In this document: positions 35,531-38,190 of the stretch, in pieces
Numbering within the stretch: position 1 is the stretch's first letter
Layout: the number at the start of each line of letters is the position of its first letter
Sequence record: NC_027349.1
DNA from: Escherichia phage HY01
Strand: one strand, 5' to 3'
Length of the DNA stretch: 64,000 bases
Notes under the pieces: model-generated
Told to the model about the DNA's origin: nothing
Databases searched by the model: none
What the model saw: the letters and a program-made list of their open reading frames with translations, nothing else
Program-made: the position numbers and the translations under genes

Positions 35531-35560
35531 AAAGCCCCAACCTTTTGGTCGGGGCTAAAA
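35531..35560 (-). terminator. Rho-independent terminator hairpin (GCCCCGACC-AAAA-GGTTGGGGC) plus U-run
   Basis: Near-identical copy of the hairpin at 36090-36117; 3' of the ip-like gene. Confidence 0.55.
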
Positions 35561-35562
35561 TG

Positions 35563-36036
35563 TTATTTGATTTGTTTAGCAGACCAAATGCGGTCTTTAA
35601 TAATTTTTTGGATGTCTTCAACATACTCAAGAGAGTGAGCATGTGGATTATCTTTGAAACTATAAGCGCGGGCTAACTTTTGGCCTTCGGTTTTGATTAC
35701 TAAAAGCTCTTTAAGGATAGCTTCATATTTAGCGATAATTCCTTTAACGATATTTTTTTCTTGTGCAGCTTTAGGATCTGCTTTAGGAGCAGGTTTACCT
35801 GAAGCCTTTGCAAAAGCAGCGCCAGTAGCAACTAAACTTTTCCAGGCCATACTAACTGCATTTCCCGTAAATCCTTCTGCTTTCATGTCGCGAGCAAACT
35901 GGAATCGTGATTCGTCAGAAGCATCTTTATAGGAATATTTACCCGCTGCAATGGCTGCTTTTGCGACAGCTTGAATTTCGGTGCTAGATGCTTCATTTAA
36001 CACCGCTTCATTTAAAAATTGAGCATATGATTTCAT
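35563..36036 (-). CDS. Internal-protein-like capsid-targeted protein (157 aa)
   Basis: N-terminal MKSYAQFLNEAVLNEASSTE with L-x-E protease-type sites, resembling IP capsid-targeting sequences. Confidence 0.6.
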   Translation of the reverse strand: MKSYAQFLNEAVLNEASSTEIQAVAKAAIAAGKYSYKDASDESRFQFARDMKAEGFTGNAVSMAWKSLVATGAAFAKASGKPAPKADPKAAQEKNIVKGIIAKYEAILKELLVIKTEGQKLARAYSFKDNPHAHSLEYVEDIQKIIKDRIWSAKQIK

Positions 36037-36076
36037 CTTATTTCCTGTTTTAATTCGTGGATTTAATATACTACTA

Positions 36077-36084
36077 TATTTATA
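36077..36084 (-). promoter_or_regulatory. Late-promoter box TATAAATA upstream of the ip-like gene
   Basis: Plus-strand tatttata at 36077-36084, about 40 nt upstream of the ATG at 36036. Confidence 0.4.
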
Positions 36085-36089
36085 CTAAA

Positions 36090-36117
36090 AAGCCCCAACC
36101 TTTCGGTCGGGGCTAAG
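36090..36117 (-). terminator. Rho-independent terminator hairpin (GCCCCGACC-GAAA-GGTTGGGGC) plus U5
   Basis: Strong GC stem followed by TTTTT on the minus strand; ends the small-RNA/tRNA transcription unit. Confidence 0.55.
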
Positions 36118-36122
36118 CCTTG

Positions 36123-36420
36123 CGGCAACCTTGTCGGGGTTCCACCTGCTAAGGCAAGTGTTTGTACGAAACGCCGGGATTCGAACCCGGTTATTAAGCA
36201 GTTGACGCTACTCAATATTTTTAAAAGGCCATATCTCGACCATATCCGAACGTTCCGTCAAAAACGCTACTCGGCTTACGGCAAAGATATTTCCTCGAAT
36301 CGATAATTCGGTGCGCCGTTTCTGTTGTGATAGTAAAGAATCAGAACACAGTAAAACTGTGGGAGAAACTATACTCCAGGGAACATCAGTCCGACGACTT
36401 ACCGGTAGCGACCCGGTTTC
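36123..36420 (-). ncRNA. Putative small stable RNA(s) with tRNA-like acceptor/T-arm (resembling T4 species 1/2 RNAs)
   Basis: No credible ORF. Minus-strand sequence has a canonical T-arm CCGGGTTCGAATCCCGG flanked by a 7-bp acceptor-like stem (CGGAACG/CGTTTCG), but the internal region is too long for a canonical tRNA. Confidence 0.35.
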
Positions 36421-36771
36421 TTAGTATTCTTTTAAAGCATCAACCTGTTCACGACGTTTACGCCATAAATCAATTACTTCATACGCAGATTCAGCATTTC
36501 GAATTGGACGGCATTTATATAAAGACTTATGATTTTGATATTGTGTAGATAACGGAATTTTATCTAAAAGGTCTTTACGTTCAAAATATTCGTAACCATC
36601 TAAACCAAATGAACGATTTTTGAGAAATTGCCAATGACCATATTCGTTTTCGACATAAACATAATCTGCATGCTGATAAAGTAAATTAATTACACGTTCA
36701 GAAATAACAGTGTCATTATGATTAAAATAGAATGTTAAATCATGAACTACTAAATAAACATTACCTTTCAT
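36421..36771 (-). CDS. Hypothetical protein (116 aa) embedded in the tRNA/small-RNA region
   Basis: ORF track. Confidence 0.5.
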   Translation of the reverse strand: MKGNVYLVVHDLTFYFNHNDTVISERVINLLYQHADYVYVENEYGHWQFLKNRSFGLDGYEYFERKDLLDKIPLSTQYQNHKSLYKCRPIRNAESAYEVIDLWRKRREQVDALKEY

Positions 36772-36787
36772 ATTTTCCTCACTTAAT

Positions 36788-36863
36788 TGGTCGAGGCAGT
36801 AGGGATCGAACCTACGACCTAGGACTTAGAAGGTCCTTGCTCTTCCTTCTGAGCTATGCCTCG
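36788..36863 (-). tRNA. tRNA-Arg (anticodon UCU)
   Basis: Manual fold of reverse complement: 7-bp acceptor, anticodon loop CUUCUAA, T-loop GGTTCGATCC, encoded CCA. Confidence 0.8.
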
Positions 36864-36867
36864 GATT

Positions 36868-36942
36868 TGGCGGACGTGATAGGATTCGAACCTATAACCA
36901 ATCGCTTAACAGGCGATCGCTCTGCCATTGAGCTACACATCC
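36868..36942 (-). tRNA. tRNA-Asn (anticodon GUU)
   Basis: Manual fold: acceptor GGATGTG/CACGTCC, anticodon stem ATCGC/GCGAT, loop CUGUUAA, T-loop TTCGAAT, CCA. Confidence 0.75.
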
Positions 36943-36946
36943 AAAT

Positions 36947-37033
36947 TGGTGGGGAGTGATGGAGTCGAACCACCCGAGTCGCAATGACAATGGATTTACA
37001 GTCCACACCGCTACCTCTACGGAATAACTCCCC
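36947..37033 (-). tRNA. tRNA-Tyr (anticodon GUA), long variable arm
   Basis: Manual fold: acceptor GGGGAGT/ACTCCCC, anticodon loop CUGUAAA, long variable arm, T-loop TTCGACT, CCA. Confidence 0.7.
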
Positions 37034-37042
37034 AAATTAATT

Positions 37043-37117
37043 TGGTGGCCCTGGGTGGAATTGAACCACCATCTGGCGATTATGAGTCGCTTGCTTGAAC
37101 CTTCCAGCTACAGGGCC
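37043..37117 (-). tRNA. tRNA with anticodon CAU (Ile-lysidine or Met)
   Basis: Manual fold: acceptor GGCCCTG/CAGGGCC, anticodon loop CUCAUAA, CCA; T4 tRNA-Ile also carries a CAU-derived anticodon. Confidence 0.7.
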
Positions 37118-37118
37118 T

Positions 37119-37195
37119 TGGTGCTGATTGACGGAATCGAACCGCCGACCTTCTCATTACAAGTGAGTTGCTCTACCTACTGAGCTAAATCAGCA
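37119..37195 (-). tRNA. tRNA-Thr (anticodon UGU)
   Basis: Manual fold: anticodon loop CUUGUAA, T-loop GGTTCGATTCC, CCA. Confidence 0.75.
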
Positions 37196-37199
37196 AAAC

Positions 37200-37289
37200 T
37201 GGCGGAGGCGATAGGATTCGAACCTATGAGTCGCCGGAGCGACTGCCGGTTTTCAAGACCGGTGCATTAAACCACTCTGCCACGCCTCC
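37200..37289 (-). tRNA. tRNA-Ser (anticodon UGA), long variable arm
   Basis: Manual fold: acceptor GGAGGCG/CGCCTCC, anticodon loop CUUGAAA, long variable arm, CCA. Confidence 0.75.
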
Positions 37290-37295
37290 AAATAT

Positions 37296-37946
37296 TTATA
37301 TATTGTTAATTTGATTTAGAATTCTTTTTGCTTGAGTATGACTTACGCCAATATGCTTAGCATATTTAGATAATTCACCACGCTTAGAAAAATCATATAA
37401 TTTAGAAATTTCTATTCTTCTTTTTCTTTCATCCGCAGAAACTTTTGCTTCGTTTGCTTTTGCTATTTTACGTTTAGCTTCTTGAGAATGAGTTTTACCA
37501 GCAAAGCCATTCTTCATTAATCCATTTGAAGACCATCCTTTTAATTTTCCGTTAGAATGTGCCTTTTTAACACCCAATGAAATTAATTCGCGTTGCTGAT
37601 CTGTCATAGGATAATTATTTATATGGTCCCATCCACCTTCACCTCCAAGTTTTAAATTATACACATCTGGTCTATTTAAAAACTCTTCTGTGACAATATT
37701 TTTCTCGGCTTCAAGCATAGATTCTTTATCATCAAAATACTCTAATATTTCTTTAGAAAAATTTTCTATACCATATTTATCTTGGGCTCTTTTTAATAAT
37801 TTACCAGAACCCATATATCCATCATCTAAATTTTCGGTAGAATGCACACCAATATAAATTTTATTATTAATTTTATTTGTTATTTTATAAAGATAAAAAT
37901 GCATATCAGTCCCTAATAAAGAACTGAGCGTCTCACGACGAGTCAT
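37296..37946 (-). CDS. segB: GIY-YIG homing endonuclease SegB-like
   Basis: 216 aa; GIY-YIG module YLYKITNKINNKIYIGVHS...GYMGSG; embedded in the tRNA cluster, as reported for T4 segB. Confidence 0.8.
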   Translation of the reverse strand: MTRRETLSSLLGTDMHFYLYKITNKINNKIYIGVHSTENLDDGYMGSGKLLKRAQDKYGIENFSKEILEYFDDKESMLEAEKNIVTEEFLNRPDVYNLKLGGEGGWDHINNYPMTDQQRELISLGVKKAHSNGKLKGWSSNGLMKNGFAGKTHSQEAKRKIAKANEAKVSADERKRRIEISKLYDFSKRGELSKYAKHIGVSHTQAKRILNQINNI

Positions 37947-37949
37947 AAA

Positions 37950-38024
<75 letters not shown>

Positions 38025-38029
38025 AAATT

Positions 38030-38118
38030 TGGTGCGAGAAGTGGGACTCGAACCCACAAGGAAATCATTCCGCAGCATTTTAAGTGCTGTGCCTTTACCA
38101 ATTTGACCATTCTCGCGC
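38030..38118 (-). tRNA. tRNA-Leu (anticodon UAA), long variable arm
   Basis: Manual fold: anticodon stem CAGCA/TGCTG, loop CUUAAAA, long variable arm, CCA. Confidence 0.75.
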
Positions 38119-38190
38119 TGGGAATAAAGGACTTGAACCTTTGCATCCTGGAATCAAAATCCAGTGCCTTACCAACTTGGCTAATTCCCA
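38119..38190 (-). tRNA. tRNA-Gln (anticodon UUG); 3' CCA not encoded, directly abuts tRNA-Leu
   Basis: Manual fold: acceptor TGGGAAT/ATTCCCA, anticodon stem CTGGA/TCCAG, loop UUUUGAU; matches the T4 Gln-Leu dimeric precursor arrangement. Confidence 0.75.

Follow-up and report, generated by a model that had tools for sequence, protein, structure and literature searches.

What is encoded by the ~340 nt of minus-strand sequence that run from the stop codon of a 116-aa ORF to the end of the next terminator (36424..36087) in the 64,000-nucleotide window of Escherichia phage HY01 DNA analysed here? The preliminary description of this locus, made from the sequence alone, had found no credible ORF in the stretch and had placed a strong terminator beyond it. 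Both statements were borne out: the only ORFs are three short, overlapping ones of 34, 37 and 50 aa, and a GC-rich hairpin followed by a U-run lies at 36114..36091. On the same strand, tRNA scanners identified a cluster of nine tRNA genes upstream (36788..38190; Gln, Leu, Gly, Ser, Thr, Met(CAU), Tyr, Asn and Arg), and CCA is genomically encoded in all true tRNAs of the window. When positions 36050-36800 were used as a megablast query, 761 phage records were matched, almost all of them T4-like, with Escherichia phage PEC04 at 100% identity; judged by its sequence, the window genome is that of a Tequatrovirus (T4-like). Together, the nine-tRNA cluster and the T4-like matches place the stretch at the downstream edge of a tRNA cluster of the T4 type.

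Predicted orthologues of T4 rnaD and rnaC at the end of the tRNA cluster

Two small RNAs, rnaD and rnaC, have been known since the 1970s and are located at the end of the T4 tRNA operon. In the annotated T4 genome (NC_000866) they appear as misc_RNA features, with rnaD (‘species 2 RNA’, 119 nt) directly 3' of tRNA-Arg and rnaC (‘species 1 RNA’, 139 nt) after it. Pairwise alignment showed that the window stretch aligns to both, so that the resemblance to the T4 species 1 and 2 RNAs suspected in the preliminary description proved well founded, and this direct alignment to the annotated T4 RNAs identifies the window RNAs as their orthologues. The stretch is thus best explained as encoding orthologues of rnaD and rnaC, behind which come a conserved trailer and the terminator that ends the transcript of the tRNA cluster: two RNAs and a trailer, rather than a single element. 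We put the probability of this reading at about 85%, a figure that covers identity, structure and biogenesis jointly and excludes the functions proposed below.

The two RNAs differ in how closely they follow T4. The rnaC orthologue (36165..36303, minus strand; 139 nt, tRNA-like) is identical to T4 rnaC (NC_000866 70908-71046) at 137 of 139 positions, leaving two substitutions as the only differences, and has the same strand, order after rnaD, trailer and terminator. The rnaD orthologue (~36310..36424, minus strand; ~115 nt) was delimited by pairwise alignment to T4 rnaD (NC_000866 71053-71171); the local alignment spans T4 rnaD nt 4-119, with near-identical end blocks (the 5' 45 nt and the 3' 22 nt are almost identical) and a divergent centre. 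The 5' boundary of rnaD, placed only to within a few nt, overlaps the stop codon (TAA) of the 116-aa ORF. Between the two RNAs lies a 6-nt spacer, GAAUUA (36304..36309, minus strand; AAAUUA in T4). Each RNA therefore joins its T4 counterpart by homology, by a common fold, described below, and by position, which for rnaC means the strand of the tRNA cluster with rnaD upstream and the trailer and terminator downstream, and for rnaD means tRNAs upstream and rnaC immediately downstream. This is what emerged from the comparison with T4 RNA C and D that the preliminary description had proposed.

The sole architectural difference from T4 is the 116-aa ORF (36421-36771, minus strand; phrog_3355), which is inserted here between tRNA-Arg and rnaD; T4 lacks it, and G4507, BW-1 and other phages possess it. 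Given this insertion, the 5' end of rnaD cannot come from 3' processing of tRNA-Arg, unlike in T4. Since rnaC and rnaD are a textbook part of the T4 tRNA region, a T4-like genome is expected to carry them; both are already known and nothing unusual among such phages. On the RNA strand, the whole 346-nt region folds more stably than shuffled controls (z = -5.42).

A tRNA-like acceptor end and two loop-paired hairpins in the predicted rnaC fold

To describe the fold of rnaC, we aligned 17 distinct homologues from nine named genera (a count that includes Ursula, an unassigned member of the Straboviridae) and one unclassified phage. The sources were Tequatrovirus, Gaprivervirus (VR7), Kagamiyamavirus (EcS1), Moonvirus (KM16), Karamvirus (KMB17 and KMB20), Tegunavirus (phiR1-RT), Kanagawavirus (KLB31), Marfavirus (PWKp18 and Clarke) and the unclassified Enterobacter phage Ecl4496; two Citrobacter phages were checked after the set had been assembled. 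A covariance model built from the 17 homologues (R1) scored 165.8 bits at 36158..36304, its sole strong match in the window. The same model matched genuine tRNAs weakly (11-28 bits), as would fit a tRNA-derived frame in rnaC.

Several measures indicate that this fold is under selection. The minimum free energy of rnaC is -50.2 kcal/mol (z = -4.55), and none of 200 shuffles was equally stable. RNAalifold predicted 43 pairs from the homologues, 28 of them with compensatory changes. With the acceptor stem drawn at its full length and a helix between the loops added, the fold comprised 49 pairs, with 93.2% of cells paired across the 17 homologues and compensatory changes, in which both sides had changed, at 29 pairs; on no measure was the observed value reached by any of 500 shuffles, and register-shifted controls, in which the fold was slid along the alignment, left 35-47% of cells paired.

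The ends of rnaC are closed by a 7-bp acceptor stem in which the 3' strand pairs with the RNA's own 5' end (CGAUUCG, 36296..36302, with CGUUUCG, 36173..36167; minus strand). Two central U.U mismatches are present in this stem here and in most lineages; A-U is replaced by G-C in 11 sequences, and in phiR1-RT the stem is fully Watson-Crick (CAGUCCG/CGGACUG). Directly abutting its 3' strand is the T-arm, CCGGG-UUCGAAU-CCCGG (CCGGGTTCGAATCCCGG; 36174..36190, minus strand), which the preliminary description had recognised as canonical. The 7-bp acceptor-like stem that it had drawn over this T-arm fared differently. That stem, ACGGAACG (36258..36251) with CGUUUCGU (36173..36166), can be drawn and closes a 93-nt element, the one that GenBank records MK327946 and PQ824230 label as a tRNA, but it shows no compensatory change in the 17 homologues and falls apart in step with changes in the true acceptor stem. 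The description of the region as tRNA-like accordingly holds for rnaC in its acceptor stem and T-arm, and fails in the cloverleaf-like closure that was proposed for it.

Between these ends, the predicted body of the RNA consists of two hairpins joined by an A-rich linker. The longer, P2 (36231..36290, minus strand), carries the apical loop UUGACG (36261..36256), has compensatory changes in most or all pairs of all four of its helices and stands on a 3-bp helix at its base (AGG, 36295..36293, with CCU, 36228..36226; minus strand). The shorter, P3 (36192..36217, minus strand; 10 bp), shows compensatory change at 8 of its 10 pairs and carries a conserved loop, CGUCAA (36207..36202), that is perfectly complementary to the P2 loop over 6 bp. 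All cells of this loop-loop helix are paired, and two double changes have arisen in it independently, UUGAUG/CAUCAA in phiR1-RT (Tegunavirus) and UUGGCG/CGCCAA in Marfavirus. These two independent co-changes support a 6-bp loop-loop (kissing) interaction, which may form within one molecule or between two.

At the 3' end, CGUUUCG is followed by a discriminator-like U (36166) and then by ACA-A (36162..36173 in all, minus strand). Across the rnaC alignment (A3) this reads U-N-C-A, where most sequences have A at the N position, Marfavirus has C and phiR1-RT has U. Thus, rnaC encodes U-ACA-A where phage tRNAs encode CCA-A, and CCA occurs in Marfavirus only. Taken as a whole, the covarying fold describes rnaC as a predicted tRNA mimic, in which an acceptor stem is stacked on a T-arm and two loop-paired hairpins stand in for the D and anticodon arms. 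It resembles tRNA (RF00005) in its 7-bp acceptor stem abutting a 5-bp T-stem, its UUCGAAU T-loop, its single discriminator-like base and its setting within a tRNA gene cluster, and differs from tRNA in its length of 139 nt, in having neither a D-arm nor the 5-bp stem and 7-nt loop of an anticodon arm, and in its encoded ACA end.

Could rnaC nevertheless be a real but unusual tRNA, such as a tRNA-Lys(UUU) or a tRNA-Met with a long insertion? Two GenBank records label it in this way, MK327946 with a 94-nt ‘tRNA-Lys’ and PQ824230 with a 95-nt ‘tRNA-Met’, both over the 3' two-thirds of rnaC, and the sequence CUUUUAA in the P2-P3 linker is identical to the anticodon loop of tRNA-Lys. However, the stem on which a tRNA-Lys or tRNA-Met fold depends has no compensatory changes and is broken where the true acceptor stem varies, no 5-bp stem carries a 7-nt anticodon loop, and the encoded 3' end is ACA rather than CCA. 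Across 36087-36424, moreover, ARAGORN called no tRNA or tmRNA, and no Rfam tRNA-clan family was matched even at E <= 10. We therefore consider an unusual tRNA very improbable. The related idea of a tRNA-Lys decoy for PrrC was rejected, as CUUUUAA is not conserved outside Tequatrovirus.

The Infernal/Rfam scan that had been suggested as a check was equally blank, with no family matched in the region at the gathering threshold or at E <= 10; Rfam 15 holds no family for rnaC or rnaD. Two further families were considered. In the tRNA-like domain of tmRNA, both ends of the molecule form an acceptor stem beside a T-arm, a non-tRNA body takes up the remainder, and tRNA enzymes carry out processing; the full tmRNA also has pseudoknots and a tag-peptide frame inside it. 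rnaC resembles this domain in having an acceptor stem and T-arm with a non-tRNA body in place of the anticodon half, and differs in being much smaller, in lacking a tag-peptide frame and the G3.U70 alanine identity pair, and in possessing two loop-paired hairpins; membership of the tmRNA family was rejected, as there was neither an ARAGORN call nor a tmRNA-family match inside the region. YrlA / bacterial Y RNA-like RNAs (RF02553), which combine a tRNA-like module with a Ro-binding helix, were likewise set aside, since their weak matches fell only on true tRNAs (36837-36901 and 37136-37252) and none on rnaC or rnaD.

A different view would take the region to be a decaying tRNA pseudogene or a functionless spacer, and a degenerate tRNA was among the identities first suggested for it. 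A tRNA-derived acceptor stem and T-arm are indeed present. Deletions of the whole tRNA region of T4 are also viable on laboratory hosts, so that any function of rnaC or rnaD must be dispensable on those hosts. Decay is nevertheless contradicted by the strong conservation of structure across genera: the fold is held by many compensatory substitutions across the nine named genera and the unclassified Enterobacter phage, its loop sequences are invariant or co-vary, and the RNA is stable in T4 (PMC9697503). Selection on structure of this strength and breadth implies that rnaC and rnaD are not junk, and we regard the pseudogene or spacer reading as highly unlikely.

rnaD has conserved ends and an exchangeable centre

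A second, separate structure was recovered for rnaD. Among 19 distinct rnaD sequences, we observed a near-invariant 5' block, AAGAAACCGGGUCGCUACCGGUAAGUCGUCGGACUGAUGUUCCCUG, and a near-invariant 3' block, AUCACAGCWGAAACGGCGCAC, on either side of a central domain that exists in at least four unrelated versions among phages. The ~45-nt central domain of the window is of the type found in G4507, whereas T4 has a different type; H1, S1, S2 and S3 are common to both. Divergent copies from Karamvirus PG7, Raoultella phage M21a and the Vequintavirinae phage W70 were added for the analysis of the fold, which comprises 20 pairs over 14 homologues, with 96% of cells paired, 10 of the 20 pairs compensatory and none of 500 shuffles reaching the observed values.

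The 5' hairpin H1 (ACCGG-GUCGCUA-CCGGU; 36401..36417, minus strand) is retained with quite different sequences elsewhere: UCGGG/CCCGA in W70, AUCAGAA/UUCUGAU in PG7 and M21a, and GCCGG/CCGGC in L027. It is followed by the closing stem S1 (36311..36398, minus strand), which pairs GUCGUCG (36398..36392) with CGGCG(C)AC (36318..36311). Inside S1 lies S2, which pairs U.GUU (36385..36382) with AACA (36326..36323) on the minus strand and in which U-A is swapped for A-U in 6 sequences; relative to T4, a G-to-A change in the window S2 turns a U.G pair into U-A. Also within S1, alongside the variable central domain, is a central hairpin, CACAG-UUUUA-CUGUG (36361..36347, minus strand), and the consensus fold further includes a stem that closes the variable domain.

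These patterns bear on whether the stretch might encode small proteins. The ORFs of 34, 37 and 50 aa do overlap it, and many GenBank records carry ‘hypothetical protein’ features under the match. Against this, substitutions follow RNA helices with paired compensatory changes, the central domain of rnaD is exchanged as a whole, with indels, from phage to phage, the 50-aa ORF continues across the terminator, and the T4 annotation is misc_RNA. A coding role for the stretch thus seems vanishingly improbable.

Experimental evolution provides one further observation on rnaD. When phage BW-1 was evolved on the host ECOR34, a convergent T-to-C SNP arose in rnaD in all ECOR34-adapted lines (PMC12685909). 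We mapped this SNP to window position 36349, in the central hairpin of rnaD, where it converts a C.A mismatch into a C-G pair (CACAG-UUUUA-CUAUG to CUGUG); the window already has G at this position. The restoration of a hairpin pair in ECOR34-adapted lines suggests a host-dependent role for rnaD, with the SNP pointing to an effect of its structure on fitness that depends on the host.

rnaC, rnaD and the trailer are found in varied combinations

The genomic setting of these RNAs was found to vary between phages. rnaD usually lies directly after a tRNA, as in T4, W70, PG7 and M21a, following tRNA-Asn in PG7 and M21a and tRNA-Met in W70. It is found without rnaC in JS98-like phages, in which the R1 covariance model found no rnaC, and in one Vequintavirinae phage. 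Its 3' neighbour is rnaC in T4 and in the window, the trailer in JS98 and in L041, L042 and L044, and other sequence in VR20 and W70; in JS98-like phages the trailer directly follows rnaD on the 3' side. These varied neighbours indicate that rnaD, rnaC and the trailer are independent modules. For its part, rnaC is found inside tRNA clusters, a few nt from the flanking tRNAs, in EcS1 (where it is placed between tRNA-Phe and tRNA-Trp), Ecl4496 and Ursula.

This modularity also informs the reading in which the RNAs act in cis only, as structured 3' sequences that lend stability to the tRNA-operon transcript, or to the mRNA of the 116-aa ORF, or steer its processing. In T4 and in the window the transcript does carry the RNAs at its 3' end, ahead of the terminator, and the trailer is highly conserved. 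Yet rnaC sits in mid-cluster rather than at the 3' end in EcS1, Ecl4496, Ursula and phiR1-RT; rnaD, rnaC and the 116-aa ORF occur independently of one another; and the excised RNAs are stable (PMC9697503). An exclusively cis-acting role is therefore unlikely, if less so than the coding, tRNA and pseudogene readings.

A cellular origin or broader occurrence of rnaC was rejected: when 185,579 species-representative genomes were scanned with a structure-aware pattern, only two chance matches came back, without resemblance to rnaC, and scans of IMG/VR returned T4-like contigs only, together with unrelated sequences.

The transcript and its likely processing

A conserved 3' trailer of ~50 nt (36115..36164, minus strand), with the predicted hairpins CACUUGC-CUUA-GCAGGUG, AACC-CCGACAA-GGUU and GCC-GCAA-GGC, leads from rnaC to the intrinsic terminator AGCCCCGACC-GAAA-GGUUGGGGCU, a 10-bp GC-rich hairpin (36114..36091) that is followed by UUUUU (36087..36114 in all, minus strand). 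The trailer and terminator are common to T4, where the trailer is near-invariant. A late-promoter motif, TATAAATA (37300..37293, minus strand), is located just upstream of tRNA-Ser, and the terminator at 36114..36091 is the first strong one downstream of it.

In E. coli, an sRNA sponge is formed by the 3' external transcribed spacer of the glyW-cysT-leuZ tRNA operon. Like that spacer, the trailer is conserved between the last RNA gene and a terminator hairpin; in sequence, the two show no similarity. With this precedent beside it, we considered whether rnaD and/or the trailer-terminator might be base-pairing regulators of the Hfq type, targeting or sponging host or phage RNAs. Near-invariance across genera is seen in single-stranded parts of rnaD and over ~40 nt of trailer sequence, while the neighbouring sequence diverges, the trailer ends in a terminator hairpin and U-tail, and an A-rich AAGAAA precedes rnaD. 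On the other side, blastn with rnaD, rnaC and the trailer against 5,426 complete E. coli genomes returned nothing at E <= 10, and thus no match of at least ~21 nt on either strand. We hold a role of this kind to be doubtful.

For the orthology reading, the question becomes how the two RNAs would be released. The 12-bp stack of acceptor stem and T-stem has the geometry on which RNase P and the other enzymes that process tRNA ends normally act. In the classical literature, species 1 RNA is a molecule of ~140 nt with tRNA-like ends and a long hairpin that is an RNase III substrate, processed from a dimeric precursor with species 2. We envisage that the host tRNA-processing machinery would excise rnaD and rnaC from the polycistronic tRNA transcript, with RNase P cutting the 5' end of rnaC and endo- or exonucleolytic trimming acting elsewhere, and that both would accumulate late in infection as stable RNAs. 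Counting against our overall reading are the T4 annotation, which starts rnaC one nt 5' of the predicted RNase P site, the U.U mismatches of the acceptor stem and the 116-aa ORF that lies between tRNA-Arg and rnaD here. In T4, RNAC has been confirmed by Northern blot, RNAC and RNAD are classed as late RNAs of unknown function, and the excised RNAs accumulate stably (PMC9697503); the late-promoter motif and the terminator downstream of it fit this published class (PMC9697503).

Possible functions of rnaC and rnaD

The biological roles of RNAC and RNAD have been stated to be unknown (PMC3014915), as has the function of these RNAs in the study of BW-1 (PMC12685909), and we found no reported function in the searchable literature. 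Some features of the predicted structures are nonetheless suggestive. rnaC keeps those parts of a tRNA that are recognised by processing and modification enzymes and by acceptor-end-binding proteins. Having neither an anticodon arm nor an encoded CCA end, it should be neither decodable nor efficiently chargeable. In addition, the modules have been gained and lost between related phages, including a transfer of rnaD into a Vequintavirinae phage, a pattern typical of accessory functions.

We therefore put forward, as a tentative proposal that is more probably wrong than right, that rnaC is a trans-acting, non-chargeable and anticodon-less mimic of the tRNA ‘top half’, and that rnaD is an independent accessory RNA with a host-dependent effect on fitness. 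On this proposal, the partner of rnaC would be a protein able to recognise the acceptor, T-arm or elbow of tRNA, which rnaC would occupy or recruit; enzymes that process or modify tRNA are candidates, as are host defence factors directed at tRNA. For its part, rnaD would act separately as a structured accessory RNA whose effect on fitness depends on the host. The covariation-backed architecture of rnaC itself narrows the set of proteins that it could engage.

A more specific version, to which we attach considerably less weight and in which the tRNA-like decoy of the preliminary description may hold, would have T4-like phages use rnaC, locked by its paired loops, as an adaptor or decoy directed at some host factor specific for the acceptor/T-arm end of tRNA, for instance a tRNA-directed defence nuclease or an acceptor-end-modifying toxin, with rnaD and/or the trailer as further trans-acting RNAs of host range. 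If true, this would provide a function for RNAs that have been without one for 50 years.

The structure derived by comparison may be new, above all the pairing between the loops and the N-C-A 3' end, as may the taxonomic spread, the modular occurrence and our interpretation of the BW-1 SNP. Most public T4-like genomes leave the stretch without annotation or mislabel it (as hypothetical protein, tRNA-Lys, tRNA-Met or tRNA-Phe), and alignments A3 and A4 could seed two Rfam families.

Conserved and variable features of the small RNA region

The 3' trailer, a stretch of about 50 nt that leads from the last small RNA to the terminator (36115-36164, minus strand in the window; also L007:1320-1400), was found to be nearly unchanged between genera, with either rnaC or rnaD as its upstream neighbour depending on the phage. 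Its fold consists of three small hairpins; together with the terminator it gives a z of -4.33. The trailer could be an RNA of the 3' external transcribed spacer type, or a processing signal. Within rnaC itself, the T-loop of phage BW-1 (OR125554) reads UUCAAAU in place of UUCGAAU, a purine-to-purine substitution at the counterpart of tRNA nucleotide 57.

In most GenBank records of T4-like phages, rnaC and rnaD are either unannotated or lie under 'hypothetical protein' coding sequences or spurious tRNA features (tRNA-Lys, tRNA-Met or tRNA-Phe), and only a few records, such as those of T4, RB3, RB27 and ATK47, carry a label for rnaC or rnaD.

Open reading frames within and around the tRNA cluster

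Compared with T4, the window has a 116-aa ORF to which no function was assigned (36421-36771, minus strand; phrog_3355) inserted in the interval between tRNA-Arg and rnaD, the TAA stop of which (36423..36421) falls inside the equivalent of the annotated 5' end of T4 rnaD. Further upstream, a 216-aa ORF for a GIY-YIG/Seg-like homing endonuclease (37296-37946, minus strand; phrog_314, E = 1.5e-55) starts 5 nt after the end of tRNA-Gly. This slot is occupied by tRNA-Pro in the related phage G4507, and no remnant of tRNA-Pro or tRNA-His was found in the window. T4 segB has a different site in the cluster, the interval from tRNA-Ile to tRNA-Arg.

Beyond the trailer, near-identical terminator hairpins, AGCCCCGACC-RAAA-GGTTGGGGCT, at 36114..36091 and 35556..35533 flank a 157-aa ORF, again without an assigned function (35563-36036; phrog_2280). 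Because only one hairpin is present in T4 and the ORF is missing, 35533-36114 looks like an insertion/deletion cassette with a duplicated stem-loop at its borders. A late-promoter motif, TATAAATA, is present at 36084..36077.

rnaD and other small elements in more distant phages

An rnaD homologue was clearly recognizable directly 3' of tRNA-Met in Escherichia phage W70 (L035:1493-1593), an rV5-like member of the Vequintavirinae that is unrelated to T4; the 5' and 3' blocks of this homologue are conserved, and its 5' hairpin covaries. Records of this kind number only about five, which suggests horizontal transfer. W70 also possesses a further tRNA-like element (L035:1318-1405), with a 13-bp terminal stem and a T-arm, GAAGGTTCGAGTCCTTC, for which ARAGORN made no tRNA call.

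In phages PG7 (L066:480-620) and M21a (L067:480-606), a divergent rnaD is followed by a hairpin, about 130 nt of further non-coding sequence and tRNA-Asp. The hairpin covaries (CCGAAAG-UUUA-CUUUCGG in PG7 versus UGAAAG-UUCG-CUUUCA in M21a), and this non-coding region may be another small RNA.
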